The notes under the pieces: model-generated
Seen by the model: only the letters and a program-made list of their open reading frames with translations
Told to the model about the DNA's origin: nothing
Databases searched by the model: none
Shown: in pieces, positions 4,615-49,932 of the stretch
Layout of the letters: every line of letters starts with the position of its first letter
Numbering within the stretch: the first letter of the stretch is position 1
Origin: Escherichia coli
GTDB lineage: Bacteria; Pseudomonadota; Gammaproteobacteria; Enterobacterales; Enterobacteriaceae
DNA: 64,000 bases
Assembly (NCBI RefSeq): GCF_013315695.1
Contig: NZ_CP054353.1
Reading direction: 5' to 3' (one strand)
Made by a program: the position numbers and the translations under genes

Positions 4615-5520
4615 ATGCGAGGAAAAATACCTAAAACGGAACTGCTGGTGACTTTTGAGGTCGTCGCACGTCATGAAAGTTATACCAGAGCGGCAGAGGA
4701 GTTAGCGTTAACCCAAAGTGCAGTATTCAGACAAGTAAGTGCGCTGGAGGAATTTTTACATACTCCGTTATTTTCACACTCTAAAAAACGCATTTTTCTT
4801 AATGATGCAGGGAAGTATTACCTGGGGATAGTAAAAGAAACATTAAATAAGCTGGAACGCGATACCAATACCATTATGACCTGGCAGCCTACGGTTCAGG
4901 TTATTGAACTTGCCGTTAATCCTACTTTTAGTACCCACTGGTTAATCCCAAATTTACATGAATTCACAAAGTTACATCCCGATATTATTGTTAATATTCA
5001 TTCTTTAGCTAATAACGGCGACTTTCTTAATCGGGAGTACGATGCTGTCATTATGCGCGAAAATTTTTGCGCGCCCTGGGCGGAAGTAGAGTATCTCTTT
5101 GAAGAGGAGATTTTGCCGGTATGCAGCGGCAGTTTGCTTGCAATGTCCGATCAAAAACTGTCAGTGGCAGAACTGCTTACTGAGTTACCACTTCTGCATC
5201 AAAGCACCCGTATTACTGGCTGGGAAGAGTGGTTTGCTTTATCTGGCGTTAGCAGTCCGCTGGTCAATAACGGACCACGTTTCGATTTGCTTTCAATGCT
5301 GATTGCCGCCGTGCGCTCTAATCTCGGCGTGGCGCTGTTACCACGGTTCGCTATTCAACATGATTTGGATAGTGGCGATATGGTGATTCCCTGTGATGTG
5401 CCTATTCGTACCGGTAATCGTTTTATTATGACGTGGCAGGAAGAGAAGTCTGACTCACCGCACTTGCAGCAATTTCGTGAATGGTTGCTGGCGAAATCGG
5501 TCGTACCGCAGGAGATGTAA
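4615..5520 (+). CDS. LysR-family transcriptional regulator
   Basis: N-terminal HTH (ESYTRAAEELALTQSAVFRQVSALE) plus substrate-binding domain; ATG at 4615 preferred over the TTG-extended ORF at 4585. Confidence 0.85.
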   Translation: MRGKIPKTELLVTFEVVARHESYTRAAEELALTQSAVFRQVSALEEFLHTPLFSHSKKRIFLNDAGKYYLGIVKETLNKLERDTNTIMTWQPTVQVIELAVNPTFSTHWLIPNLHEFTKLHPDIIVNIHSLANNGDFLNREYDAVIMRENFCAPWAEVEYLFEEEILPVCSGSLLAMSDQKLSVAELLTELPLLHQSTRITGWEEWFALSGVSSPLVNNGPRFDLLSMLIAAVRSNLGVALLPRFAIQHDLDSGDMVIPCDVPIRTGNRFIMTWQEEKSDSPHLQQFREWLLAKSVVPQEM

Positions 5521-5553: not shown

Positions 5554-6156
5554 TTACCAGTCGATACCCGGCTGGGCCTGAATGCCGTTATCAAAAGCAT
5601 GTTTGACGGGGCGGATTTCGCTTACCGTATCCGCCATTTTTAATATCTGACTGTGGCAACCGCGTCCGGTGACAATGACACTTTGTTGTGCCGGGCGGTT
5701 TTGCAGAGAAGCGATCACTTCTTCGGTGTCCAGATAATGGTAAGCCAGCATATAGGTCAGCTCATCAAGCACCACTAAGTCGTAACGCTTGTCAGCCAGC
5801 ATCCGTTTGCTTTCCGACCAGACCTCTTTCGCCGCGTCGATATCCGCTTGCCGGTTCTGTGTCTCCCAGGTAAAACCGGTTCCCATAATATGAAACTCAA
5901 CCCCCAGCGGCTGGAGAAGGTTGTATTCGCCGTTGTCCCATTGCCCCTTGATGTACTGCGCAACCCCCACCGTTTTGCCATGACCCACCGCGCGCGTCAC
6001 AGTACCAAACGCGGCAGTGGATTTCCCTTTGCCGTTGCCGGTGAAAACAATCAAGATCCCTTTTTTCTCTATCGCCGCCGCGACGCGCGTATCGACCTGT
6101 TCCTTCAATTTCTGCTGGCGCTGCACATGCCGTTCAGTTGAAATTCGCGCTTCCAT
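5554..6156 (-). CDS. ATP:cob(I)alamin adenosyltransferase (CobA/BtuR family), second copy
   Basis: 200 aa; P-loop VFTGNGKGKSTAAFG; near-colinear with E. coli BtuR as recalled. Confidence 0.85.
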   Translation of the reverse strand: MEARISTERHVQRQQKLKEQVDTRVAAAIEKKGILIVFTGNGKGKSTAAFGTVTRAVGHGKTVGVAQYIKGQWDNGEYNLLQPLGVEFHIMGTGFTWETQNRQADIDAAKEVWSESKRMLADKRYDLVVLDELTYMLAYHYLDTEEVIASLQNRPAQQSVIVTGRGCHSQILKMADTVSEIRPVKHAFDNGIQAQPGIDW

Positions 6157-6165
6157 TCATTTTCC

Positions 6166-7818
6166 TTAATGTCCCGCAGGGCAACTGGCGCAGCGGTGTT
6201 TCTGCTCAAACTGACTAAAGAAATTATTGCCTTTATCATCTACCAGGATGAATGCGGGTAAATTTTCCACTTCCATCATCCACACCGCTTCCATACCCAG
6301 CTCCGGGTATTCCAGGCAACGCAGACTTTTGACATATTCTTGCGCCAGTAACGCAGCTGCACCGCCAATACTTCCCAGATTGAAGCCGCCATGTTTGTGA
6401 CAGGCATCGGTGACCTGCTGGCTGCGGTTACCTTTCGATAACATCACCAGACTGCCGCCAGCCGCCTGGAAGGTATCGACATAACCGTCCATTCGACCGC
6501 CCGTGGTTGGACCCAGTGAACCGCAGGCCATGTTCTCCGGTGTTTTCGCCGGGCCAGCGTAATAGACAATATGATGCTTCAGGTAATCCGGCATCGGTTC
6601 GCCGCTATCCAGCCGCGCTTTTATTTTGGCGTGGGCGATATCGCGCGCCACTACGATGGGACCACTTAACGACACGCGGGTGCCTACCGGTAATCTGGCG
6701 AGATCCTGCATCACGTCACGCAACGGACGATTTAGATCCAGCTGTACATGTTGCGCGTGATTTTCTTCCCGCAGTGAGGCTGGAATATATTGCCCCGGAT
6801 TGTGTTCGAGTTTTTCCAGCCAGATACCGTGCTTGTTAATTTTTGCTTTGATATTGCGATCCGCAGAACAGGAGAGCGTCATAGCTATCGGGCAAGAGCC
6901 ACCGTGACGCGGCAGACGAATGACGCGAATATCATGAGCGAAATATTTACCCCCAAATTGCGCACCAATACCAAATTGCTGACTGGCCTCGAGCAATACT
7001 TTTTCCAGCTCAATATCACGGAATGCTTGTCCTTGCTCGTTTCCGCTGGTGGGCAAATTGTCGTAATATTTCGTTGAGGCCAGCTTGGCAACTTTTAAGG
7101 TTTGATCGGCTGAAAGCCCTCCGACGACAAAGGCGATGTGGTAAGGCGGGCAGGCAGCGGTGCCCAGCGATTTCATTTTTTCGATTAAAAATGCGGTCAG
7201 TTTTTCTGGTTGCAATAGGGATTGGGTTTCCTGATAAAGCGCGGCTTTATTGGCAGAGCCGCCCCCTTTATTAATACAGAGAAAATGGTACTCATCACCA
7301 GCGACGGCGCTGATATCAATCTGCGCCGGGAGATTGGTTTGCGTATTGACTTCGGTAAACATATCCAGTGGCGCATTTTGTGAAAAGCGCAGATTATTTT
7401 CCTGAAAAGTGGTGTAAATGCCTTTGCTTAAGGCTTCAGCGTCGTTACCTCCGGTCCATATCTGTTGCCCTTTACTGGCAACAATAGTTGCGGTGCCGGT
7501 ATCCTGACAGTTGGGTAATACCCCTTTTGCTGAGACTTCAGCATTACGTAATAACTGCAACGCAACGTATTTATCATTACTACTGGCGTGCGGATCGTTA
7601 AGAATGCTGGCGACCTGTTGCAAATGAGCGGAACGTAAGAAAAAAGAGGCTTCATAAAATGCCTGCCGGGCAAGCAGCGTTAATGCTTCAGGAGCGATTT
7701 TTATCACTTCTTCGCCGTCTAATTCCGTTACTGTAATATGTTGATCGCTAATTAATGTATATTCTGTACCGTCTTTATTTTGTAGAAACGGTTCTTGCCA
7801 GATAAATGGTTTGGACAT
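6166..7818 (-). CDS. fumD: class I (Fe-S) fumarate hydratase family; probable mesaconase/fumarase FumD
   Basis: 550 aa, FumA/FumB-like length and N-terminus ([11 protein letters not shown]...); lies in the methylaspartate operon. Confidence 0.8.
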
Positions 7819-7925
7819 ATTTCACTTTTCACCTTAAACGTTAGTTTTACTTAATTGCCGTCTAACTTCATGATCCGGCTTATAAAAATGCGTAGTCATT
7901 GGCTTCTGATTGCTTAAGATCCCCC

Positions 7926-9206
7926 TCAGGGCAGAGCAACGTTCGATTCATTGGGTTTTAATGCTTTACCCCGACAGCCCTCGCCGAAATGTTCGCCTTC
8001 CCACCGACTCACCATCGCAGCGCCCATTGCGTTGCTCATGACGTTTGTCGCGGAACGCCCCATATCAAGGAACGGATCAACGCCCATCAGCAAGATCAGC
8101 CCCGCTTCCGGAATATTGAACTGGTTGAGCGTGGCGGCGATAACCACCATTGAGGCGCGTGGTACGCCAGCCATTCCTTTCGAGGTCAACATCAGGATCA
8201 ACAGCATGGTGATTTGCTCACCGATGGATAAATGGATATTGCAGGCCTGGGCGATGAAAACTGTGGCGAAGGAGCAGTAGGCCATTGATCCAACGAGATT
8301 AAATGAGTAGCCAATGGGTAAGACAAAGCTGGCAATTTTGGGGGAAACGCCAAATTGCTCCAGTTTTTCAAGCGTTCCCGGAAAAGCCGCTTCAGAACTG
8401 GATGTGGTAAATGCCAGCAGGGCGGGTTCCGAAAGGGCACGGGTCAGGCGTCTGATGCAGGGGCCGACATAAACGATGGCCAGACCGATAAGCAGCACCC
8501 AAAGTAACAACATGGTGAAATAAAATTCACCCATAAAGATCCCGGCGCTCACCATAACTGCCAGTCCTCGTTCAGCAATCAATGCTGAAATAGCGGCGAA
8601 TACGGTCAGGGGAGCGAAGAGCATGACGTAGCCAGTGAGCTTTAACATGGCATGTGCCAGCGAATCTAAGGCGTGAACGATGGCGCTGCCTTTCTCACCA
8701 ATCGCCGTCAGGCTACAGCCGAGGAAAATTGAGAACACCACGATTTGCAAAATTTCATTGTGCGCCATGGCATCGACAATGCTGGTGGGGAAAGCATGCG
8801 AAATAAATACTTTTAGTGTAAAGGGTTCTGACGCGACCACTCCGGTGGTTTCGGCACCGTGTGCAACAAAATTAATTCCTGTGCCTGGCATGAAGAAATT
8901 TACCGTTATCAAGCCTAAGGCAATTGACAGCAATGAGGCGCAAATAAATAAAAAGAGTGTTTTAGAAAAAATACGACCAAGGGCTTTGGCATCTCCCATT
9001 TTAGCTATACCTACCACCAGGGTAGAGACCACTAACGGAGCGATAATCATTTTTATCAGTCGTAAGAAAATCGTCGTGAATATCGATATTTCTTGCGCAT
9101 AGAGTTTTGCGGTTTCCGGTGAAGCAGTGTTATTGAGCACTACGCCGATAATCATTCCAAGTACCAGCGCCAAAAGAATCATCGTGGTTAAACTTATTTT
9201 CTTCAT
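7926..9206 (-). CDS. DctA-like dicarboxylate/amino acid:cation symporter (DAACS family)
   Basis: Polytopic membrane protein of DctA-like length; start moved to the ATG at 9206, which is preceded by GGAGGA. Confidence 0.8.
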   Translation of the reverse strand: MKKISLTTMILLALVLGMIIGVVLNNTASPETAKLYAQEISIFTTIFLRLIKMIIAPLVVSTLVVGIAKMGDAKALGRIFSKTLFLFICASLLSIALGLITVNFFMPGTGINFVAHGAETTGVVASEPFTLKVFISHAFPTSIVDAMAHNEILQIVVFSIFLGCSLTAIGEKGSAIVHALDSLAHAMLKLTGYVMLFAPLTVFAAISALIAERGLAVMVSAGIFMGEFYFTMLLLWVLLIGLAIVYVGPCIRRLTRALSEPALLAFTTSSSEAAFPGTLEKLEQFGVSPKIASFVLPIGYSFNLVGSMAYCSFATVFIAQACNIHLSIGEQITMLLILMLTSKGMAGVPRASMVVIAATLNQFNIPEAGLILLMGVDPFLDMGRSATNVMSNAMGAAMVSRWEGEHFGEGCRGKALKPNESNVALP

Positions 9207-9251
9207 TTTTTCCTCCATCAGGTGCACGGCGATAAATCAGAATCAGGAGAA

Positions 9252-9283
9252 GTAGATGCCTGAATAGAGATTCAGGCATCTAC
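9252..9283 (-). other. intercistronic stem-loop (14-bp perfect stem, 4-nt loop) inside the operon
   Basis: gtagatgcctgaat agag attcaggcatctac; no U-run follows on the transcribed strand. Confidence 0.5.
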
Positions 9284-9366
9284 CTGCTATTACAACCTTA
9301 CAAATAGCTGAAGTGTTGAACTGCAATAAGTGACGGGATGTCAGTTGGCTAAAAGTATTCGGATTT

Positions 9367-9684
9367 TTACAAATCGAAACTCATATTTAATAAAGGTGCA
9401 TGTTGCTGTGCACCATAGACATCATTGTCACCTACATTCCCGGAGATAATATCTCGTGGCATGACGATTTTTACTGCGTTAGAAGGATCAAACCAGACAA
9501 TACGGTGAATAAAGTCAGGTTCAACATGATATAAGCGCGCAATCAGTTCTGGGGTTAATTGCCCTGATGATTTAACTCGCTCATAGTTTTCTTTCGTTTT
9601 AAATAAAATATCTAAAACCAGTTCGTAAGGTCCGGCATTTTTCGAACGAATGACTTGCGCCAGTGAGACAATTGACTGTTTCAT
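9367..9684 (-). CDS. small protein of unknown function (DUF4387/AtuB-like by recollection)
   Basis: 105 aa ORF whose start overlaps the stop of the upstream gene by 4 nt (translational coupling). Confidence 0.6.
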   Translation of the reverse strand: MKQSIVSLAQVIRSKNAGPYELVLDILFKTKENYERVKSSGQLTPELIARLYHVEPDFIHRIVWFDPSNAVKIVMPRDIISGNVGDNDVYGAQQHAPLLNMSFDL

Positions 9685-11051
9685 GCCTGAACTCCTTCTG
9701 GCGTCACCTGTTCAATATGGAAATCAAAACGCAGAGCGTCGTTGGCTTCAATCAGGTGATATATGGAAAATTCGTATACCGGCCCGCCCTGGATATCAGA
9801 AGGGGAGAACGGGAACGCCAGATTGCCTGCGGTAGCGATGCGGTTTTCATAGCCGTAGTGCAGCATGGTAGAGCGCACCAGCGAGCAAACGCTATTGGCA
9901 ATTTCCTGGGTCGGTGCAACTACATCAAGGACAATCCCCAGCTCATGCCCGGCAGTTTGCATCGGTTCATGGTCGCCCATCACCCCGTTTTTGCCGTACA
10001 GGTGGAAATTGATGCGAATGCTGTCATCGTCGAGCGACAGGTTACGCCAAACGCTGGTTTTGACTTCATCGATGATTTTATCGATCCCGGCGATCATGAT
10101 CGGGTCGCGCGTTCCTGCGATGGTCAGACAGCGGAAGCCCACCCGTCGCGCACCTTCCAGTTTCAGGGCATACGGCGTTTCTTCATGCTTAGAACCGCTG
10201 ACGTACACTTCGCCGTCATTGACCGCTTTAAATGTGCAGCCTTTCAGGTTCAACACGCCGCCAGGTCCAGGCAGGAAGTAGGGATCGGATTTCTCATACA
10301 GTGTGTGTGCAGCCGCTGACGTTTCGGTAAATTTACGCTTCGGATTAAATGTCTTCAGCGTAAAGCCGTTGTCATCAATGATGCCCATCGCACAGTCAGA
10401 GCCTGAGCCGGGCGTTGCGGCGATTGCCGCGCATTCAAGGATTTTCCCACAATGCAGCGCCAGACCTTCATCAAAGCCTTGCATGATCGGGAGCGCAGCA
10501 AAGCAGGCCGGGTCGTAAGCGCGCCCGCCCAGCACCACTTGCGCGCCTTCTTTCAGCGCCCGCTGGAAGGGTTCGATGCCCATTTGCGCGACGATATACG
10601 TACTTTCGTCAATCGCGTCGTGGGTTAACGGCGGGACAAAATCCAGCGCCGTGATTTTGCCGTTATCCAGCGCCTGGTGGACGATGGCTTTGTCAACGTC
10701 TGCCGGGATCAACGCCATCGAGAACGAGAGGTGCTCTTCCTGGGCAATCTCATGAATTATTTCTCGGCACCACTCCAGGTGTGGTGCGGCACCAGAACCG
10801 CCAGCTGTTCCGATCACCACCGGTATATTATTTTGCACGCCTGCGGTGATCATATAGCGCAGATCGCGCTTGACCCCTGCGCGATCGGTAAACGGTTTGC
10901 CTGCCCCGAGGTAGTGGGGGCCTGGATCGGAAGAGCCTGCATCAACGGCGATCAGATCGGGCGATTCTGCCATCGCTTTGCGGAAGCTCTCTTCCGGGAA
11001 TCCATACCCGAGGATTGCCGTTGGCGATAAGACTTTAAAAGAACGAGCCAT
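9681..11051 (-). CDS. DUF1446 (AtuA-like) family protein, function unknown
   Basis: 456 aa; family assignment is from memory of the N-terminal region and is unverified. Confidence 0.6.
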   Translation of the reverse strand: MARSFKVLSPTAILGYGFPEESFRKAMAESPDLIAVDAGSSDPGPHYLGAGKPFTDRAGVKRDLRYMITAGVQNNIPVVIGTAGGSGAAPHLEWCREIIHEIAQEEHLSFSMALIPADVDKAIVHQALDNGKITALDFVPPLTHDAIDESTYIVAQMGIEPFQRALKEGAQVVLGGRAYDPACFAALPIMQGFDEGLALHCGKILECAAIAATPGSGSDCAMGIIDDNGFTLKTFNPKRKFTETSAAAHTLYEKSDPYFLPGPGGVLNLKGCTFKAVNDGEVYVSGSKHEETPYALKLEGARRVGFRCLTIAGTRDPIMIAGIDKIIDEVKTSVWRNLSLDDDSIRINFHLYGKNGVMGDHEPMQTAGHELGIVLDVVAPTQEIANSVCSLVRSTMLHYGYENRIATAGNLAFPFSPSDIQGGPVYEFSIYHLIEANDALRFDFHIEQVTPEGVQA

Positions 11052-11054
11052 TTG

Positions 11055-12296
11055 TTAATCCTTAGCCTGCAACAGCGCGATAGTACGATTCATTTCGTTG
11101 AAGACGATATCGAGGCCTTCGTCAAAGCCCATCCCTGGCTTTACCAGCATACGCATAGGGCGAGCGGCAAGGGCGACGTGGACACAGGTGCGGGCACTGA
11201 CATCAGTTTCATTGCAGGTGCCGCCCTGGTACGCTTCCATGCTGTGGCTGTTGCAGTAAAGAACCGCATCGACGATGTTGTGAATACTGCCCAGATCCGG
11301 GGTTTTGATTTGCACCATGTGACAACTGGCGGCATCAGTGAAATCAACAATATCCTGGTAGGTGTTACACCATTCATCGGCCACAATTTTCACGCCGGAA
11401 CCGAGGCGCGTCAGCTCTTTGGTAATCGCGGTCAGCAGGCGAATTTGATCGGGCTTGTTACCGGCATCGACCGGCCCTTCAATGTAGAGCGGCAGGCCTT
11501 GCGCTTCTTTTTCCAGGCTGGCGATGTATTGCGCACAGCGAAGCGGATCCATATCGAAGATCAGGCCGATAGTGCCGTATACATCGATGTGCAGGGTTGG
11601 GTGGTAGCGTGCGCTGGTGCGCTTGCTCAGAATACGATCCGACAGCCAGCGGACATATTCGCGCAGTTTTTCACCTTTAAAGCCCAGTTTCTCTTCGACG
11701 TTATTAATCAGTGCATGGGGCAGCACGTCGATGCCCTTAAGGATCATCTTATCGACGGCGATATATCGATCGTCCCCGCTCTGACCAAATAATGGAATGG
11801 ATTCCGCCACGCGTGGCAACTGCCATTCATCACAGACCACTTCAGTTTTCAGACGGCCGGTTGCCAGCGCGGTAGCATCAAGCAGCGCCTGTGATAATCC
11901 GTAGCGCACGGCGGTATGCAGCAAGTTGCCGTCAATACGCAATTTGTCGAAGAAACGGGCATTCGGCAGGAAAGCATCCACATCGCGGCCTATCAGTAAT
12001 GGCTTGATATGGTCGTTGAGGAACGGAATAAAGTGCTCAGCGAGGAACAGTGGATCGCGACCACCTGCCCCGGAATACTGTACGGCAGCACAGTCACCTA
12101 CGGCGACCGCGCCGTTTTCCAGAATCAACTGTACCGATACGCACTCCCCGGCCTGACGAACGGCGTTAAACCCCTGTGTTACCGGCTCCCCGGTATAAAA
12201 AAAGCCGTCATGACCCGCTCCGTTTTTTATCGCCTGCTGGTCATCGAAATAGAATGAGGAGTAGCCAGCAGTGAACAGAGCCTGTTTTATTTTCAT
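11055..12296 (-). CDS. mal: methylaspartate ammonia-lyase (beta-methylaspartase)
   Basis: 413 aa; N-terminus MKIKQALFTAGYSSFYFDDQQAIKNGAGHDGF matches clostridial MAL. Confidence 0.9.
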   Translation of the reverse strand: MKIKQALFTAGYSSFYFDDQQAIKNGAGHDGFFYTGEPVTQGFNAVRQAGECVSVQLILENGAVAVGDCAAVQYSGAGGRDPLFLAEHFIPFLNDHIKPLLIGRDVDAFLPNARFFDKLRIDGNLLHTAVRYGLSQALLDATALATGRLKTEVVCDEWQLPRVAESIPLFGQSGDDRYIAVDKMILKGIDVLPHALINNVEEKLGFKGEKLREYVRWLSDRILSKRTSARYHPTLHIDVYGTIGLIFDMDPLRCAQYIASLEKEAQGLPLYIEGPVDAGNKPDQIRLLTAITKELTRLGSGVKIVADEWCNTYQDIVDFTDAASCHMVQIKTPDLGSIHNIVDAVLYCNSHSMEAYQGGTCNETDVSARTCVHVALAARPMRMLVKPGMGFDEGLDIVFNEMNRTIALLQAKD

Positions 12297-13741
12297 TATG
12301 GTCTTCCTATTAATTTACTGTGGGATACAGCATTGATGTCATCTACAACCATCTGGAATGTCGGTTGGCGTCCTTCAAAGCGTGCGCGTTCCGCAACGTA
12401 ATCGTGGTGGAGGTCGAGAATATCTTTTGGCAATGGAACGGCTCCGGCTTCCAGTACGCGTATCGCGCCGGTGTTGTCACGGACCGGAAGAATTTTGCCC
12501 GCGTTGCAGGCGGCTGGCGCAAACGGCACATCCAGTACGCCCGCTTCAAATGCCAGCACCGTACCGCGCGCAATATCACCATTACCCAGTTCGAACACTT
12601 TATTCAGTACCGCGTGAACCTCGCTCTTAATCAGTTCAATTTCCAGTTCAACCGCAGGGCACGGCGGGAATTTCTGCTCGTTGACCATGTTGAGCATCTG
12701 GCGGGAGGCTTTCAGCCCCTGAATGTTGGCAGCGGCAGTCGGGATGCCCCAGGCTTCGTGCGGACTTTTGGTGATGACTTTGGTGGCACCAGACATCCCC
12801 GCGACGGCTGCGCCCCAGGAGATAATAGCGAACGCTTTCGATTCGTCTTCCGGAAAGCCGCCCATCCACTGGTGAAACACGGTACTTAATTCATAGTCGG
12901 TATAGCCATAGCTCTGAAAATATTCGTGTGCAAGTTCACGCAGAGACTGGATCGCCGCAACATCCTGCGTCAGGCTGCCGACCTGTCCATAACCAACGGT
13001 GATAGATTTCACACCCTGTTCCAGCGCCAGTAATCCTTCGATTATCGCGATAGAGTGCGAGATAAACGGCGGGATCAGGGTACCCGTTAGTGGGCCAAAC
13101 GGTTCGCGGTTGATGCGGATCCCGTGTTCTTCATACATCCCCATTAAACGGTCGCAGTACTGCCAGTCGCGGATCGATTTTTCCAGCGTTACGCGCTTGG
13201 CATACGGAATGTTGTAGGAAATGCCGCCGCCTTCATAACTGGTAAAGCCGCTGGCCATCGAGATTTCAGCCAGCAGACGCGCATCTGGCGTGCCGTGGCG
13301 GATCTGTAGCGGTTTTTGCAAAGTTTCGGTGAGGCGACGGCAAGCTGCGACGCCGTGGTTAACGACCGGTAAACCGTTCAGTTTAGAGGTTCCGGCTTCG
13401 ATGGATTTTTTAATCCCTACAGCCGCTTCTTCGTACCGATTCAGACGGGTATATGCGTCGATGGTGCTCGGCAGCAGATCGCATTCTTCTTGTAGTGTTT
13501 TCAGTAGTTCGATGTGTTCGTCCATCAGCGCCACGCCTGCGCGCGGTTGGCTAAGAGTTTTACCTTCCTTGTCTGCTTTCAGCAGGGCAAGAGAGAAGCG
13601 TTTATGCTCAGGAATGGTTTGTTGGTATTTAACGCCATCTTCAAAGTTTTCAACATCCTTGCCGGTTTCCCAGGTTTTCAGTACCTGTTGCCGCTCGGTC
13701 ATGAATTCGTCATGGGTTAATTTCTTATTTCGAAGTTCCAT
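12296..13741 (-). CDS. glmE: glutamate mutase epsilon (E) subunit
   Basis: 481 aa; N-terminus MELRNKKLTHDEFMTERQQVLKTW resembles clostridial GlmE/MutE. Confidence 0.88.
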   Translation of the reverse strand: MELRNKKLTHDEFMTERQQVLKTWETGKDVENFEDGVKYQQTIPEHKRFSLALLKADKEGKTLSQPRAGVALMDEHIELLKTLQEECDLLPSTIDAYTRLNRYEEAAVGIKKSIEAGTSKLNGLPVVNHGVAACRRLTETLQKPLQIRHGTPDARLLAEISMASGFTSYEGGGISYNIPYAKRVTLEKSIRDWQYCDRLMGMYEEHGIRINREPFGPLTGTLIPPFISHSIAIIEGLLALEQGVKSITVGYGQVGSLTQDVAAIQSLRELAHEYFQSYGYTDYELSTVFHQWMGGFPEDESKAFAIISWGAAVAGMSGATKVITKSPHEAWGIPTAAANIQGLKASRQMLNMVNEQKFPPCPAVELEIELIKSEVHAVLNKVFELGNGDIARGTVLAFEAGVLDVPFAPAACNAGKILPVRDNTGAIRVLEAGAVPLPKDILDLHHDYVAERARFEGRQPTFQMVVDDINAVSHSKLIGRP

Positions 13742-13759
13742 TGATTGCAGCCTTAATTG

Positions 13760-15148
13760 TTATAGGGTTAAGCATTGAATACTGGTGCGCGCGGCGGCCA
13801 GCGGATCGACTCTGGCGACGTTTGCCAGCAGTGGTAATAGCCCCCGGGAATCGCGGTAATATTCAAATTCGGTCGGTAAGAGAATGCGTTTACCGTCGTC
13901 GTTTAACTCGCGGTATTTCAACCAGTGATGCATATCGAACTGACTGGCACGCGAGAGCCATCCGCCGGATCCGACGACTTTACGCACGGTTGTCAGGTCA
14001 CGTCCCATCTGTAAATCGACATTGCCGACGCAGGTGCAGACCTCTTTTTTGGTGCCCGCATGTCTTTCGGTGGCATAACCCACACACAGTCCGGCCAGGA
14101 CTGTATCGAAATATTTTTCTTCTGCATTCGCGGGTAAGTAGTCGGGATGAGCGACTAGATGACGGAGGTAATGATAAAAAGCGTCCAGCTGTGCGGGTTG
14201 CTGAGCAAAATTCACATTGACTAACTCTTTCGCACTTTCACCAACCACCATTGCCGAGACGCGCATTCCCAGATCGCCTTCCACCGTCCGTTTCACGAAG
14301 GGTTCCGGTACGCCGTGTAAAACGGTGTCGGGCGAGAGCGTGTTGGCACAGGCGGAATAGACATCGGTGGTTGCGCCACCCATGTCGATCAGTATGAACT
14401 CTTTCCAGCTGTGATCGACATTACTGATTGCCTTAACCAGTTCAAAGACTGTCCACGGTGTCGGCATTGGTTCTTCGCCTGTTTTATCAACAACGACATC
14501 CAGCCCTTTCCCTTTAACGATGCGTTTAAGGAATATGTCGCAGATAGCCTGGCGTGCAGCTAAAGGGTTCGGATGGTCAAGATCGGGCAGAACGTTGTCG
14601 ACGATGGTCAGGTCTTTATGCCCTAGGATCTCCTGCACCTCGTCCTGAATATCCCGGTTTCCGGCATAAATAATGGCGCAGTCGAGTTTGGATTCTGCCA
14701 GCACACGGGCGTTATTCAGGCCGTAGCTTTCTTCTCCGCCGTCGGTGCCGCCGGTGAACAAGAGAATATCGGGCTGCGTTTCTTCCAGTGCCTGGATATC
14801 ACGGCGGTTCAGCTTGTAGGAGTAATATTGCGCAATTTTAGCCCCCGCAGAGTGAGCGGTTACTTTCGCGGTTTCCAGGGTGATAGAAGGCACCAATCCC
14901 ATTGCGGCAACCGCCAGCCCACCTTTGGCAGAGGAGGAATACTTCAATGCAACCTCACCGTTGTTAAACAGGGGGAGGGTATTATCTACGTTTAACACCA
15001 GGTTCAGGCTGGAGAAAAACCCCTTCGCCAGATGATGGGTGGTGGTTGGGGTCAGTACGTGGTTAACCAACGTTAACGCGTCCCCCTCCCGGGCGAAGAG
15101 GGCTGCTTTGGTCCACGTCGATCCAATATCGACAGAGACGATTTGCAT
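13760..15148 (-). CDS. glmL: glutamate mutase L component (MutL/GlmL)
   Basis: 462 aa, the size of clostridial GlmL; sits between the S and E subunit genes. Confidence 0.8.
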   Translation of the reverse strand: MQIVSVDIGSTWTKAALFAREGDALTLVNHVLTPTTTHHLAKGFFSSLNLVLNVDNTLPLFNNGEVALKYSSSAKGGLAVAAMGLVPSITLETAKVTAHSAGAKIAQYYSYKLNRRDIQALEETQPDILLFTGGTDGGEESYGLNNARVLAESKLDCAIIYAGNRDIQDEVQEILGHKDLTIVDNVLPDLDHPNPLAARQAICDIFLKRIVKGKGLDVVVDKTGEEPMPTPWTVFELVKAISNVDHSWKEFILIDMGGATTDVYSACANTLSPDTVLHGVPEPFVKRTVEGDLGMRVSAMVVGESAKELVNVNFAQQPAQLDAFYHYLRHLVAHPDYLPANAEEKYFDTVLAGLCVGYATERHAGTKKEVCTCVGNVDLQMGRDLTTVRKVVGSGGWLSRASQFDMHHWLKYRELNDDGKRILLPTEFEYYRDSRGLLPLLANVARVDPLAAARTSIQCLTL

Positions 15149-15597
15149 CAGATTGCCTCTTCAAGAATACGAGTATCAACGTCATGACGTTGGTTGATAT
15201 CGTGTGCCATCAGCTGACAAACATCTTCTAAGTCATGACTTGGGGCAAAGACGCGATCAAATCCCATCTCTTTGAATTTGGTTTCCACGTCAGCGAAGTC
15301 ATGTTTTCCGACCACCAGGTTACCGCCCACATAGAGCAGGATGTCCCCCAGTCCACGCTCGATGCAGCGTTCGCGCATGCCCAGACAGTCGATATCGCCA
15401 TGCCCATAGATAGAGGAGACGACAATCGCGTCAGCGCCAGTTTCAATGGCCGCATCAATATATTCGTCCTGGCTGACCATTACGCCCAGATTAATGACTC
15501 TGAAGCCATGGTTGCTAAAAACGCGGTCCAGAACTTTATTGCCTACTGCATGGCAGTCCGCGCCAATAACGCCAATCACAAGTGTTGCTTTCTTCAT
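15148..15597 (-). CDS. glmS: glutamate mutase sigma (S) subunit, cobalamin-binding
   Basis: B12-binding domain; start taken at MKKATLV (15597), preceded by AAGGA, rather than the longer ORF from 15660. Confidence 0.85.
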
Positions 15598-16143
15598 GGG
15601 TAATCCTTTGTAAGACAGAGAGTAAAATAAGTTACACACGTCGTATTTATGGCCGTTCATAACGGCACAGGTTTAATATCACAGGAGTGTCTTTATCTGA
15701 CCGTAATGTTGCAATTGATCTATTTTCAAAATGTCTTTCGGGAAATGATTGTTTAAAGTATGTTGTTAAATTCTCATGTTAATTCAGTGTGTTATGTCAA
15801 CTAATGTCATGAATGTTAAATTTTTAAAATTAACTTGATTTGGTGTATTGAGGTATTTGTGATCTACTTCTAATTTGCATTTTAGTGATATGGGTTTAGC
15901 CATGAGTAAATGCATTTCATAAAATTTAAGTCGAATTTCACTGCAATTCATCTCTGCTTAATGTAAAAATAATGTTGAAAATAACAAATGGTTAATGATT
16001 CATGCGAATTATGACCTTAGTTAGCTCTTTTGATTTTTCGTAAAAAAGAGAGGTACATGAAGGTGCTACCAGTATGAGTAACGTTAATCAAAGGTTTTAT
16101 TACGTCTGGCAATAACGCAGGCCATTTTCGCGACTGGGTGGAT

Positions 16144-21690: not shown

Positions 21691-22784
<1,094 letters not shown>

Positions 22785-22787
22785 GCC

Positions 22788-23216
22788 ATGGCCAGAGCGC
22801 GTGGACGAGGTCGTCGCGATCTCAAGTCCGAAATCAACATTGTACCGTTGCTGGACGTACTGCTGGTGCTGTTGCTGATCTTTATGGCGACAGCGCCCAT
22901 CATCACCCAGAGCGTGGAGGTCGATCTGCCAGACGCTACTGAATCACAGGCGGTGAGCAGTAACGATAATCCGCCAGTGATTGTTGAAGTGTCTGGTATT
23001 GGTCAGTACACCGTGGTGGTTGAGAAAGATCGCCTGGAGCGTTTACCACCAGAGCAGGTGGTGGCGGAAGTGTCCAGCCGTTTCAAGGCCAACCCGAAAA
23101 CGGTCTTTCTGATCGGTGGCGCAAAAGATGTGCCTTACGATGAAATAATTAAAGCACTGAACTTGTTACATAGTGCGGGTGTGAAATCGGTTGGTTTAAT
23201 GACGCAGCCTATCTAA
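22788..23216 (+). CDS. tolR: Tol-Pal system protein TolR
   Basis: 142 aa with single TM segment. Confidence 0.97.
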   Translation: MARARGRGRRDLKSEINIVPLLDVLLVLLLIFMATAPIITQSVEVDLPDATESQAVSSNDNPPVIVEVSGIGQYTVVVEKDRLERLPPEQVVAEVSSRFKANPKTVFLIGGAKDVPYDEIIKALNLLHSAGVKSVGLMTQPI

Positions 23217-23280: not shown

Positions 23281-24531
23281 GTGTCAAAGGCAACCGAACA
23301 AAACGACAAGCTCAAGCGGGCGATAATTATTTCAGCAGTGCTGCATGTCATCTTATTTGCGGCGCTGATCTGGAGTTCGTTCGATGAGAATATAGAAGCT
23401 TCAGCCGGAGGCGGCGGTGGTTCGTCCATCGACGCTGTCATGGTTGATTCAGGTGCGGTAGTTGAGCAGTACAAACGCATGCAAAGCCAGGAATCAAGCG
23501 CGAAGCGTTCTGATGAGCAGCGCAAGATGAAGGAACAGCAGGCTGCTGAAGAGCTGCGTGAGAAACAAGCGGCTGAACAGGAACGCCTGAAGCAACTTGA
23601 GAAAGAGCGGTTAGCGGCTCAGGAGCAGAAAAAGCAGGCTGAAGAAGCCGCAAAACAGGCCGAGTTAAAGCAGAAGCAAGCGGAAGAGGCGGCAGCGAAA
23701 GCGGCGGCAGATGCTAAAGCGAAGGCTGAAGCGGATGCAAAAGCTGCGGAAGAAGCAGCGAAGAAAGCGGCTGCAGACGCGAAGAAAAAAGCAGAAGCAG
23801 AAGCCGCCAAAGCCGCAGCCGAAGCGCAGAAAAAAGCCGAGGCAGCCGCGGCGGCACTGAAGAAGAAAGCGGAAGCGGCAGAAGCAGCTGCAGCTGAAGC
23901 AAGAAAGAAAGCGGCAACTGAAGCTGCTGAAAAAGCCAAAGCAGAAGCTGAGAAGAAAGCGGCTGCTGAAAAGGCTGCAGCTGATAAGAAAGCGGCAGCC
24001 GACAAAAAAGCAGCAGAAAAAGCGGCTGCTGAAAAGGCAGCAGCTGATAAGAAAGCAGCGGCAGAAAAAGCCGCCGCAGACAAAAAAGCGGCAGCGGCAA
24101 AAGCAGCAGCTGAAAAAGCCGCTGCAGCAAAAGCTGCCGCAGAGGCAGATGATATTTTCGGTGAGCTAAGCTCTGGTAAGAATGCACCGAAAACGGGGGG
24201 AGGGGCGAAAGGGAACAATGCTTCGCCAGCCGGGAGTGGTAATACTAAAAACAATGGCGCATCAGGGGCCGATATCAATAACTATGCCGGGCAGATTAAA
24301 TCTGCTATCGAAAGTAAGTTCTATGACGCATCGTCCTATGCAGGCAAAACCTGTACGCTGCGCATAAAACTGGCACCCGATGGTATGTTACTGGATATCA
24401 AACCTGAAGGTGGCGATCCCGCACTTTGTCAGGCTGCGTTGGCAGCAGCTAAACTTGCGAAGATCCCGAAACCACCAAGCCAGGCAGTATATGAAGTGTT
24501 CAAAAACGCGCCATTGGACTTCAAACCGTAA
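23281..24531 (+). CDS. tolA: Tol-Pal system protein TolA
   Basis: 416 aa, GTG start, long Ala/Lys/Glu-rich helical domain II. Confidence 0.95.
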   Translation: MSKATEQNDKLKRAIIISAVLHVILFAALIWSSFDENIEASAGGGGGSSIDAVMVDSGAVVEQYKRMQSQESSAKRSDEQRKMKEQQAAEELREKQAAEQERLKQLEKERLAAQEQKKQAEEAAKQAELKQKQAEEAAAKAAADAKAKAEADAKAAEEAAKKAAADAKKKAEAEAAKAAAEAQKKAEAAAAALKKKAEAAEAAAAEARKKAATEAAEKAKAEAEKKAAAEKAAADKKAAADKKAAEKAAAEKAAADKKAAAEKAAADKKAAAAKAAAEKAAAAKAAAEADDIFGELSSGKNAPKTGGGAKGNNASPAGSGNTKNNGASGADINNYAGQIKSAIESKFYDASSYAGKTCTLRIKLAPDGMLLDIKPEGGDPALCQAALAAAKLAKIPKPPSQAVYEVFKNAPLDFKP

Positions 24532-24663: not shown

Positions 24664-25956
24664 ATGAAGCAGGCATTACGAGTAGCATTTGGTTTTCTCA
24701 TACTGTGGGCATCAGTTCTGCATGCTGAAGTCCGCATTGTGATCGACAGCGGTGTAGATTCCGGTCGTCCTATTGGAGTTGTTCCTTTCCAGTGGGCGGG
24801 CCCTGGTGCGGCACCTGAAGATATTGGCGGCATCGTTGCTGCCGACTTGCGTAACAGCGGTAAATTTAATCCGTTAGATCGCGCTCGTCTGCCACAGCAG
24901 CCGGGTAGTGCGCAGGAAGTACAACCAGCTGCATGGTCCGCGCTGGGTATTGACGCTGTAGTTGTCGGTCAGGTCACTCCGAATCCGGATGGTTCTTACA
25001 ATGTTGCTTATCAACTTGTTGACACTGGCGGCGCACCGGGTACTGTACTTGCTCAGAACTCGTACAAAGTGAACAAGCAGTGGCTGCGTTATGCTGGTCA
25101 TACCGCCAGTGATGAAGTGTTTGAAAAACTGACCGGCATTAAAGGTGCGTTCCGTACCCGTATTGCCTACGTTGTTCAGACCAACGGCGGTCAGTTCCCG
25201 TATGAACTGCGCGTATCTGACTATGACGGTTACAACCAGTTTGTCGTTCACCGTTCACCGCAGCCGCTGATGTCTCCGGCGTGGTCACCAGACGGTTCTA
25301 AACTGGCTTATGTGACCTTCGAAAGCGGTCGTTCCGCGCTGGTCATCCAAACGCTGGCAAATGGCGCTGTACGTCAGGTGGCTTCATTCCCGCGTCACAA
25401 CGGTGCACCTGCATTCTCGCCAGACGGCAGCAAACTGGCATTCGCCTTGTCGAAAACCGGTAGTCTGAACCTGTACGTAATGGATTTGGCTTCTGGTCAG
25501 ATCCGCCAGGTGACTGATGGTCGCAGTAACAATACCGAACCGACCTGGTTCCCGGATAGCCAGAACCTGGCATTTACTTCTGACCAGGCCGGTCGTCCAC
25601 AGGTTTATAAAGTGAATATCAACGGCGGTGCGCCACAACGTATTACCTGGGAAGGTTCGCAGAACCAGGATGCGGATGTCAGCAGCGACGGTAAATTTAT
25701 GGTAATGGTCAGCTCCAATGGTGGGCAGCAGCACATTGCCAAACAAGATCTGGCAACGGGAGGCGTACAAGTTCTGTCGTCCACGTTCCTGGATGAAACG
25801 CCAAGTCTGGCACCTAACGGCACTATGGTAATCTACAGCTCTTCTCAGGGGATGGGATCCGTGCTGAATTTGGTTTCTACAGATGGGCGTTTCAAAGCGC
25901 GTCTTCCGGCAACTGATGGACAGGTCAAATTCCCTGCCTGGTCGCCGTATCTGTGA
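24664..25956 (+). CDS. tolB: Tol-Pal system periplasmic protein TolB
   Basis: 430 aa from [21 protein letters not shown], beta-propeller. Confidence 0.97.
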
Positions 25957-25966
25957 TAATAATTAA

Positions 25967-26512
<546 letters not shown>

Positions 26513-26521
26513 GAGAATTGC

Positions 26522-27313
26522 ATGAGCAGTAACTTCAGACATCAACTATTGAGTCTGTCGTTACTGGTTGGTATAGCGGCCCCCTGGGCCGCTTTTGCTC
26601 AGGCACCAATCAGTAGTGTCGGCTCAGGCTCGGTCGAAGACCGCGTCACTCAACTTGAGCGTATTTCTAATGCTCACAGCCAGCTTTTAACCCAACTCCA
26701 GCAACAACTCTCTGATAATCAATCCGATATTGATTCCCTGCGTGGTCAGATTCAGGAAAATCAGTATCAACTGAATCAGGTCGTGGAGCGGCAAAAGCAG
26801 ATCCTGTTGCAGATCGACAGCCTCAGCAGCGGTGGTGCAGCGGCGCAATCAACCAGCGGTGATCAAAGCGGTGCGGCGGCATCAACGACGCCGACAGCTG
26901 ATGCTGGTACTGCGAATGCTGGCGCGCCGGTGAAAAGCGGTGATGCAAACACGGATTACAATGCAGCTATTGCGCTGGTGCAGGATAAATCCCGCCAGGA
27001 TGACGCAATGGTGGCATTTCAGAATTTCATCAAAAATTACCCTGATTCAACTTTCCTGCCAAACGCCAATTATTGGCTGGGTCAGTTAAACTACAACAAG
27101 GGTAAAAAAGATGATGCGGCGTACTATTTTGCTTCGGTAGTGAAAAACTATCCGAAGTCACCAAAGGCTGCAGATGCGATGTTTAAAGTCGGCGTCATCA
27201 TGCAGGACAAAGGTGACACCGCAAAAGCGAAAGCCGTATACCAGCAGGTTATCAGTAAATACCCTGGTACTGATGGTGCTAAACAGGCGCAAAAACGTCT
27301 GAACGCGATGTAA
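26522..27313 (+). CDS. cpoB: cell division coordinator CpoB (YbgF)
   Basis: 263 aa with signal peptide, coiled coil and C-terminal TPR. Confidence 0.95.
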   Translation: MSSNFRHQLLSLSLLVGIAAPWAAFAQAPISSVGSGSVEDRVTQLERISNAHSQLLTQLQQQLSDNQSDIDSLRGQIQENQYQLNQVVERQKQILLQIDSLSSGGAAAQSTSGDQSGAAASTTPTADAGTANAGAPVKSGDANTDYNAAIALVQDKSRQDDAMVAFQNFIKNYPDSTFLPNANYWLGQLNYNKGKKDDAAYYFASVVKNYPKSPKAADAMFKVGVIMQDKGDTAKAKAVYQQVISKYPGTDGAKQAQKRLNAM

Positions 27314-27477: not shown

Positions 27478-27553
27478 GGGTCGTTAGCTCAGTTGGTAGA
27501 GCAGTTGACTTTTAATCAATTGGTCGCAGGTTCGAATCCTGCACGACCCACCA
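27478..27553 (+). tRNA. lysT: tRNA-Lys (UUU)
   Basis: 76 nt gggtcgttagctcagttggtagagcagttgacttttaatcaattggtcgcaggttcgaatcctgcacgacccacca. Confidence 0.97.
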
Positions 27554-27688
27554 ATCGCTAAGGTGGAAGCGGTAGTAAAACGTGAAGGATAACGTTGCGT
27601 CAGCAACGGCCCGAAGGGCGAGACGAAGTCGAGTCATCCTGCACGACCCACCACTAACATAGTTAGTTGTAGTATCCAGCGTAGTATT

Positions 27689-27764
27689 GGGTGATTAGCT
27701 CAGCTGGGAGAGCACCTCCCTTACAAGGAGGGGGTCGGCGGTTCGATCCCGTCATCACCCACCA
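27689..27764 (+). tRNA. valT: tRNA-Val (UAC)
   Basis: 76 nt gggtgattagctcagctgggagagcacctcccttacaaggagggggtcggcggttcgatcccgtcatcacccacca. Confidence 0.97.
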
Positions 27765-27766
27765 CC

Positions 27767-27842
27767 GGGTCGTTAGCTCAGTTGGTAGAGCAGTTGACTT
27801 TTAATCAATTGGTCGCAGGTTCGAATCCTGCACGACCCACCA
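27767..27842 (+). tRNA. lysW: tRNA-Lys (UUU)
   Basis: Identical 76-nt Lys tRNA sequence. Confidence 0.97.
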
Positions 27843-27893
27843 CTAATGACGGTGGGTTCGGTGGAAGTAGTTTGTAGTATCCAGCGCAGTATC

Positions 27894-27969
27894 GGGTGAT
27901 TAGCTCAGCTGGGAGAGCACCTCCCTTACAAGGAGGGGGTCGGCGGTTCGATCCCGTCATCACCCACCA
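27894..27969 (+). tRNA. valZ: tRNA-Val (UAC)
   Basis: Identical 76-nt Val tRNA sequence. Confidence 0.97.
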
Positions 27970-27972
27970 CTC

Positions 27973-28048
27973 GGGTCGTTAGCTCAGTTGGTAGAGCAGT
28001 TGACTTTTAATCAATTGGTCGCAGGTTCGAATCCTGCACGACCCACCA
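27973..28048 (+). tRNA. lysY: tRNA-Lys (UUU)
   Basis: Identical 76-nt Lys tRNA sequence. Confidence 0.97.
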
Positions 28049-28096
28049 ATTTTAAAGATTGGTTCCGAGTAGAAATCTTTCAGGTAACACCCGTAT

Positions 28097-28172
28097 GGGT
28101 CGTTAGCTCAGTTGGTAGAGCAGTTGACTTTTAATCAATTGGTCGCAGGTTCGAATCCTGCACGACCCACCA
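28097..28172 (+). tRNA. lysZ: tRNA-Lys (UUU)
   Basis: Identical 76-nt Lys tRNA sequence. Confidence 0.97.
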
Positions 28173-28205
28173 TCCTGAATGATTAAAGCAGCATAATCCC
28201 GCAAG

Positions 28206-28281
28206 GGGTCGTTAGCTCAGTTGGTAGAGCAGTTGACTTTTAATCAATTGGTCGCAGGTTCGAATCCTGCACGACCCACCA
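28206..28281 (+). tRNA. lysQ: tRNA-Lys (UUU)
   Basis: Identical 76-nt Lys tRNA sequence. Confidence 0.97.
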
Positions 28282-28285
28282 ATGT

Positions 28286-28312
28286 AAAAAAGCGCCCTAA
28301 AGGCGCTTTTTT
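28286..28312 (+). terminator. rho-independent terminator after lysQ
   Basis: aaaaaagcgcc ctaa aggcgctttttt. Confidence 0.8.
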
Positions 28313-28416
28313 GCTATCTGCGATACTCAAAGATTCGAACCTGCTGCAGGTTCGAGTTGAGCGCAGCGAAACAACGGAGCCGCTCGCGGCGACGGCCCGT
28401 AGGGCGAGCGAAGCGT

Positions 28417-28471
28417 GTCATCCTGCACGACCCACCAATGTAAAAAAGCGCCCTAAAGGCGCTTTTTTGCT
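28417..28471 (+). repeat. direct repeat: tRNA 3'-end fragment plus second copy of the lysQ terminator
   Basis: gtcatcctgcacgacccaccaatgtaaaaaagcgccctaaaggcgcttttttgctat nearly duplicates 28262-28316. Confidence 0.8.
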
Positions 28472-28595
28472 ATTCAGGTATCCTCAATTTCACTTTGTAA
28501 ACCTGATGACATCGTCAGAGCTTACTGTGCAAGCAACTCTACGTCGGTGGAATTAGGCGTAATTCGAGTGACTTTTCCCCACCATTCGACTATCT

Positions 28596-48498: not shown

Positions 48499-49932
48499 AT
48501 GAATAAGAAATCGTTATGGAAGCTAATTCTGATATTAGCAATCCCATGTATTATTGGCTTTATGCCAGCTCCAGCAGGATTAAGCGAACTGGCGTGGGTG
48601 CTTTTTGGTATTTACCTGGCGGCCATTGTGGGGCTGGTTATCAAGCCTTTCCCGGAACCTGTCGTACTGTTAATTGCCGTTGCTGCCTCTATGGTGGTGG
48701 TCGGTAACTTATCCGACGGTGCGTTTAAGACCACCGCCGTATTAAGCGGTTACTCTTCCGGTACCACCTGGCTGGTGTTTTCTGCGTTTACTTTAAGCGC
48801 CGCGTTTGTAACCACAGGCTTAGGTAAACGTATTGCCTATCTGCTGATTGGTAAAATTGGTAGCACTACCCTGGGTCTGGGTTACGTTACGGTATTTCTC
48901 GATCTGGTACTGGCTCCGGCAACACCGTCTAACACCGCGCGTGCGGGCGGCATTGTGTTACCGATCATCAACAGCGTGGCGGTGGCTTTGGGGTCAGAAC
49001 CGGAAAAAAGTCCGCGTCGTGTCGGACATTACCTGATGATGTCCATTTACATGGTCACCAAAACCACCAGCTATATGTTCTTTACCGCAATGGCGGGGAA
49101 CATTCTGGCGCTGAAAATGATCAACGACATTCTGCACCTGCAAATTAGCTGGGGTGGATGGGCGCTAGCCGCCGGATTGCCTGGCATCATTATGCTGCTG
49201 GTCACCCCGCTGGTGATTTACACCATGTATCCACCAGAAATTAAGAAGGTGGATAACAAAACCATCGCTAAAGCGGGCCTTGCCGAACTGGGACCGATGA
49301 AAATCCGCGAAAAAATGCTGCTCGGTGTCTTTGTGCTGGCGCTGCTGGGCTGGATTTTCAGTAAGTCTCTGGGGGTTGATGAATCCACCGTGGCAATCGT
49401 TGTTATGGCAACTATGCTGCTGCTGGGTATCGTTACCTGGGAAGACGTGGTTAAAAATAAAGGCGGCTGGAATACCTTAATCTGGTACGGCGGTATTATC
49501 GGCTTAAGCTCCTTATTATCGAAAGTTAAATTCTTCGAATGGTTAGCTGAAGTCTTTAAAAATAACCTGGCATTTGATGGTCACGGTAACGTTGCTTTCT
49601 TCGTTATTATTTTCCTCAGCATCATCGTGCGTTATTTCTTCGCTTCTGGTAGTGCCTATATCGTTGCCATGTTACCGGTATTTGCCATGCTGGCGAACGT
49701 CTCCGGCGCACCGTTAATGTTAACCGCGCTGGCACTGTTGTTCTCTAACTCCTATGGCGGCATGGTTACTCACTATGGCGGCGCGGCAGGTCCGGTCATC
49801 TTTGGCGTGGGTTACAACGATATTAAATCCTGGTGGTTGGTCGGTGCGGTACTGACGATATTAACCTTCCTGGTGCATATCACCCTCGGCGTGTGGTGGT
49901 GGAATATGCTGATCGGCTGGAACATGCTGTAA
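48499..49932 (+). CDS. ybhI: DASS-family anion permease YbhI
   Basis: 477 aa polytopic membrane protein. Confidence 0.9.
   Translation: MNKKSLWKLILILAIPCIIGFMPAPAGLSELAWVLFGIYLAAIVGLVIKPFPEPVVLLIAVAASMVVVGNLSDGAFKTTAVLSGYSSGTTWLVFSAFTLSAAFVTTGLGKRIAYLLIGKIGSTTLGLGYVTVFLDLVLAPATPSNTARAGGIVLPIINSVAVALGSEPEKSPRRVGHYLMMSIYMVTKTTSYMFFTAMAGNILALKMINDILHLQISWGGWALAAGLPGIIMLLVTPLVIYTMYPPEIKKVDNKTIAKAGLAELGPMKIREKMLLGVFVLALLGWIFSKSLGVDESTVAIVVMATMLLLGIVTWEDVVKNKGGWNTLIWYGGIIGLSSLLSKVKFFEWLAEVFKNNLAFDGHGNVAFFVIIFLSIIVRYFFASGSAYIVAMLPVFAMLANVSGAPLMLTALALLFSNSYGGMVTHYGGAAGPVIFGVGYNDIKSWWLVGAVLTILTFLVHITLGVWWWNMLIGWNML

Follow-up and report, generated by a model that had tools for sequence, protein, structure and literature searches.

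tolA and the tol-pal cluster

The window, by which we mean the whole stretch of 64,000 nucleotides of Escherichia coli DNA that was analysed, contains a complete tol-pal cluster (ybgC-tolQ-tolR-tolA-tolB-pal-cpoB) in which tolA lies between tolR and tolB. The tolA coding sequence was identified from the list of open reading frames and from profile matches: its product matches the NCBIfam equivalog NF007065 (552.6 bits against a cut-off of 213) and TIGR02794 (307.8 bits against a cut-off of 59.45) over the full length, and its C-terminus matches Pfam PF06519 with an E value of 1.9e-38 over profile positions 1-96 of 96. RefSeq calls the same open reading frame tolA in the near-identical genome of E. 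coli MS 21-1 (WP_016234563.1, 1251 nt), and a tolA annotation is present in 5,425 E. coli genomes. The neighbouring genes were assigned from their open reading frames and the K-12 and MS 21-1 annotation, and the repeat tract within tolA was delimited by a codon-by-codon comparison. The features that concern us here are as follows.

22092-22784, plus strand: tolQ, directly upstream and in the same operon as tolA
22788-23216, plus strand: tolR, directly upstream and in the same operon as tolA
23281-24531, plus strand: coding sequence of tolA, with GTG as start codon and 416 codons before the stop
23953-24144, plus strand: domain II repeat tract (codons 225-288), with 12 imperfect tandem units that are 15 or 18 bp long
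23986-24003, plus strand: hybrid unit KKAAAD, which stands for K-12 units 3 and 4 (KKAAAE and KAAAD), a net difference of -15 bp or 5 amino acids
23987-23999, plus strand: junction with a single copy of AGAAAGCGGCAGC, the finest resolution of the putative deletion end points
24238-24522, plus strand: TolA C-terminal domain (domain III), residues 320-414, matched by PF06519 and the same as in K-12
24664-27313, plus strand: tolB, pal and cpoB (ybgF), the genes of the cluster that follow tolA

The membrane anchor, domain I, is that of the K-12 protein, with residues 1-236 identical in the protein alignment, and its hydrophobic stretch, read from the sequence, is AIIISAVLHVILFAALIW. Levengood et al. 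are said to have placed the boundaries of domain II at residues 48-310 of K-12 TolA in 1991.

A single 15-bp difference from K-12

The tolA gene of MG1655 (b0739, NP_415267.1) is 1266 nt long and encodes 421 amino acids from a GTG start, as in the window. The original prediction had read the window protein as 416 amino acids from its GTG, had given the K-12 protein as having 421, and had placed the difference in the Ala/Lys/Glu-rich repeat domain, where the number of repeats would vary by slippage. Both lengths proved right, the first in the open reading frame at 23281-24531 and the second in b0739, and the pairwise alignment proposed there as a check returned proteins of different length (416 vs 421) that are separated by a single gap. 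The window protein agrees with K-12 TolA at every one of its 416 residues, and the 5-residue gap corresponds to K-12 residues of about 237-241. At the DNA level there is likewise one in-frame gap of 15 bp, the placement of which is ambiguous within 23987-23999, together with 12 SNPs, every one of which is synonymous. The sole gap thus falls both inside the region that had been singled out (23640-24130) and inside the domain II tract, and the variation in repeat number that had been suggested amounts to exactly one 15-bp unit.

In K-12 the tract covers codons 225-293 (69 codons) and comprises 13 units. The 12 units of the window read KKAAAE KAAAD KKAAAD KKAAE KAAAE KAAAD KKAAAE KAAAD KKAAAA KAAAE KAAAA KAAAE, and Tandem Repeats Finder reported an array at 23938-24134 with a period of 15 and 12.3 copies. 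No change affects the final repeats of domain II in the window. MG1655 and the window therefore share the GTG start, the operon, domains I and III and the last domain II repeats of TolA, and differ in having 13 and 12 units, respectively, and in the 12 synonymous SNPs.

In MG1655 the same tract has been described, within the C-terminal portion of domain II, as a run of 13 imperfect repeats that are each 15 or 18 bp long (Zhou, Michiels & Aertsen, PLoS One 2012, PMC3477136). As far as the underlying survey is cited in that paper, the number of units ranged from 8 to 16 among 234 isolates, of which 66% had 13 units. The window tract has the features by which this locus was defined, namely units that are imperfect and 15 or 18 bp long, a change by a whole in-frame unit, and a number of units (12) within the range of 8-16. 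We conclude that the tolA gene of the window represents a polymorphism that has already been described, that is, ordinary strain-to-strain variation. More specifically, we consider that it is a form of this known variable repeat with 12 units and that it arose by the loss of one 15-bp unit, and we put the probability of this reading at roughly 90%.

Length variation of tolA among genomes

A survey of intragenic tandem-repeat polymorphism in tolA was reportedly published by Zhou, Vanoirbeek, Aertsen and Michiels in Res Microbiol in 2012. In our own systematic sample, a 13-unit tract was present in 28 of 39 full-length tolA matches (72%). The length alleles that we compared were the following.

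394 amino acids, 8 units: O157 ATCC 43894, differing from K-12 by 81 nt in the tract
404 amino acids, 10 units: O157:H7 TX 265-1, differing from K-12 by 51 nt in the tract
416 amino acids, 12 units: the window
421 amino acids, 13 units: K-12
432 amino acids, 15 units: E686, differing from K-12 by 33 nt in the tract
436 amino acids, 16 units: 1162T7, differing from K-12 by 45 nt in the tract

In addition, the tolA gene of NC101 (419 amino acids) lacks 6 bp, in frame, within domain II (alignment columns 604-609); since this loss lies upstream of the 15/18-bp tract and outside it, length variation of tolA extends beyond the published repeat region.

Sequence at the site of the probable unit loss

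The nearest 13-unit allele on the background of the window is that of strain 2014C-3075, which differs from the window allele by four SNPs, all upstream of the tract, and whose tract is that of the window base for base except for the 15 bp. At the site in question 2014C-3075 reads GAT AAG AAA GCG GCA GCA GAG AAA GCG GCA GCC GAC, in which AGAAAGCGGCAGC occurs twice without a mismatch, at a distance of 15 nt. These 13 nt form the longest perfect direct repeat at a 15-nt spacing in domain II of 2014C-3075, the next best being 7 nt long. When one copy of AGAAAGCGGCAGC and the two intervening bases are removed from 2014C-3075, the exact window sequence is obtained, which is the signature expected of a misalignment between adjacent units. 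In the scheme that we propose, an ancestor with the common 13-unit tract would have lost one 15-bp unit when the two copies of AGAAAGCGGCAGC, 15 nt apart, misaligned via replication slippage or unequal recombination, and units 3 and 4 would have fused into one hybrid unit with the reading frame kept. The direction of the change, from 13 to 12 units, is the one that we infer from the comparisons below.

The sole experimental study of the tract (PMC3477136) reported contractions at a frequency of 6.9e-5 in a clonal population, mostly as deletions of five units. In a recA mutant the frequency was 15% of the parental value, and contraction was therefore largely RecA-dependent; in a uvrD mutant it rose 3.3-fold. 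That study consequently points to RecA-dependent recombination rather than to simple slippage. The polymorphism that it describes is like that of the window in its locus, its 15/18-bp units, its in-frame change and its range, but the contraction in the window is of a single unit, at units 3/4, and most of those obtained in the laboratory removed five. A homology of 13 nt is short for a RecA-dependent exchange, which in our view favours slippage as a plausible route to this single-unit loss. The slippage invoked in the original prediction has thus gained its expected signature, the 13-nt direct repeat, while slippage itself is plausible and has a published alternative in unequal recombination.

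Carriers of the 12-unit allele

The frequency of the 12-unit allele among complete E. coli genomes was determined with a 49-nt junction probe, for which 13-unit alleles cannot supply the 28-nt seed, and matches were counted at a coverage of at least 80%. The window-type junction was found exactly in 141 of 5,426 complete genomes, and a further 6 genomes had a junction that differs by one base (referred to as A12-type, after the strain A12 discussed below), giving both types together a frequency of 2.7% (about 147/5,426). A gene 100% identical to the window tolA occurs in five complete genomes. Among the other carriers are the type strain ATCC 11775 and the strains S88, IHE3034, UM146, NU14 and APEC O18. 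The TolA protein of these six strains (416 amino acids, WP_000030655.1) has the length, the tract and the junction of the window, whereas their gene differs from the window by 16 SNPs elsewhere in tolA, has another protein accession and belongs to a background of the CFT073/NC101 type. The 12-unit tolA is accordingly a minority length allele, and could serve as a typing marker.

Two other signals were discarded as indicators of the deletion. A 91-nt junction query was rejected as a carrier count, as 13-unit genomes gave places of '100%' composed of two joined perfect pieces. Partial matches of 35 nt in about 1,060 other genomes were likewise rejected as deletion junctions; their source is the second repeat copy in those 13-unit alleles that have G at the polymorphic site.

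Probable recurrence of the one-unit loss

The 12-unit alleles were compared with the nearest 13-unit alleles, which placed them on three SNP backgrounds.

Window allele: nearest 13-unit allele 2014C-3075, 4 SNPs
A12 (from sheep) and five others: nearest 13-unit allele K-12, 0 SNPs
ATCC 11775: nearest 13-unit alleles NC101 and CFT073, 0 and 1 SNPs, respectively

The window allele itself is 12 SNPs away from K-12 and 16-17 SNPs away from the B2-type alleles (ATCC 11775, NC101, CFT073). The junction of A12 retains a T that is specific to K-12 (AAG AAA GCT GCA GCC), which places the crossover within the leftmost 7 nt of the repeat and so marks a separate event; judged by these bases, the loss in A12 is demonstrably distinct from that in the window. 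The identical 15-bp loss on three SNP backgrounds probably reflects recurrent contraction, and three independent contractions would be the most parsimonious account. What is mildly new here is that the loss of one unit recurs at the best 15-nt-spaced direct repeat of the domain, on at least two backgrounds and probably on three. The locus thus offers an example of recurrent, homology-guided loss of a repeat unit, which leaves the understanding of Tol-Pal unchanged.

We considered whether homologous recombination could instead have brought the 12-unit tract into the window lineage, on a short patch from a donor with 12 units, for example a B2 strain of the ATCC 11775/S88 type. The window tract is base for base that of ATCC 11775, and the nearest SNPs that separate the two alleles lie at 23871 and 24228, so that the exchange of a patch no longer than about 356 bp would have left no trace. 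Such an import is not needed to explain the window sequence, however, because the tract of 2014C-3075, on the window's own background, is identical apart from the 15 bp; moreover, contractions arise spontaneously at about 7e-5 (PMC3477136), and a recurrence of the event, with another crossover point, is seen in the A12 lineage. We therefore regard import as quite unlikely. An imported patch of this size in the window lineage would nevertheless bear on the count of events, as the three might then not be independent.

The polarity of the change could also be the reverse, with the 12-unit form ancestral on the window background and the 13-unit form derived from it by a 15-bp duplication. Duplicating AGAAAGCGGCAGCCG in the window does yield the 13-unit sequence save for one synonymous base (GCC vs GCA). 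Against this, the codons GCA GAG are common to all the 13-unit alleles that we examined (K-12, CFT073, 2014C-3075 and 300444) and are also present in the longer allele of E686; the 13-unit form is in the majority, at about 70%; and the 12-unit alleles are 0-4 SNPs away from a 13-unit allele on each of the three backgrounds. Furthermore, no expansions were found among 150 colonies screened in the experimental study (PMC3477136). Taken together, these observations make a duplication on the window background highly improbable, and favour the loss of a unit from a 13-unit tract.

Short-read assemblies are prone to collapse repeat tracts, but there is only a minute chance that an error of this kind, in sequencing or assembly, accounts for the 15-bp difference, given that five independently assembled complete genomes are 100% identical, that the exact junction occurs in 141, that the reading frame is intact and that unit-number variation at tolA has been confirmed by PCR sizing and sequencing (PMC3477136).

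A stronger version of recurrent contraction would hold that units 3/4 are a preferred contraction hotspot, at which the loss has arisen independently at least three times, and that the 12-unit product has been positively selected in some lineages. The contraction is found in every one of the genomes listed for the B2-type 416-amino-acid allele. We regard this version as doubtful; if true, it would mean that the length of the tract is shaped by selection, for example via the interaction with bile or with filamentous phage, rather than by neutral length drift.

Likely consequence for TolA

The helical linker formed by domain II, which carries domain III across the periplasm, would be shorter by five residues in the window protein, and if this segment is a continuous alpha-helix the shortening would be about 7.5 A. 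The consequences of unit number have been studied with engineered MG1655 strains that have 2, 6, 8, 13, 26 or 39 units (PMC3477136). In these strains tolerance to deoxycholate increased with unit number, and phage fd plated on the 2-, 6-, 8-, 26- and 39-unit variants at 28-43% of the 13-unit value. In the same study the 12th and 13th units were never part of the contractions that were recovered, and these units were linked to the last 31 residues of domain II, which are needed for binding of YbgF (CpoB). The units that match these last, YbgF (CpoB)-linked repeats are intact in the window. As 12 units lie within the natural range of 8-16, the effect of having 12 rather than 13 units is expected to be small at most; by analogy with the engineered strains, the tolerance to bile salt (deoxycholate) or the susceptibility to filamentous phage might be slightly shifted.

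Other features of the window

Over its full length (1-64000) the window is ~99.9% identical to E. coli MS 21-1 (NZ_CP146670.1), with scattered SNPs and two structural differences. In MS 21-1 an insertion of IS903B cuts a gene for an anion symporter of the DASS family in two, at a site that corresponds to window positions of about 49409-49427; the window is without this insertion of roughly 1 kb, and its symporter gene should therefore be intact. A gene for a LysR-type regulator (4615-5520, plus strand) is an unbroken open reading frame of 301 codons in the window, and its copy in MS 21-1 is annotated as a pseudogene with an internal stop.

Downstream of the tol-pal cluster lies an array of Lys and Val tRNA genes (27478-28281) whose seven members are those of K-12 (lysT valT lysW valZ lysY lysZ lysQ). 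The spacers among the last three Lys tRNA genes are 48 and 33 nt long in the window, compared to 146 and 132 nt in K-12. A perfect direct repeat of 54 nt is present at 28264-28317 and 28420-28473, with a spacing of 156 nt, and each copy consists of the last 18 nt of tRNA-Lys and a terminator-like hairpin (AAAAAAGCGCCCTAAAGGCGCTTTTTT). MS 21-1 does not have the additional 156 nt at this repeat. The repeat may be a remnant of a rearrangement of the tRNA array or of an element that had integrated at tRNA-Lys.

Between sucCD and cydAB, on the minus strand at about 5554-15597, the window carries a methylaspartate-pathway cluster. Its genes encode glutamate mutase (glmS/glmL/glmE), methylaspartate ammonia-lyase, an AtuA-family protein, a DUF4387 protein, a dicarboxylate symporter, a class I fumarate hydratase and cobO. 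This cluster is an accessory region that occurs in 1,120 of 5,426 complete E. coli genomes, O157:H7 included, and the 6.6 kb from 9000 to 15600 of the window are 100% identical to strain MSB1_4I.
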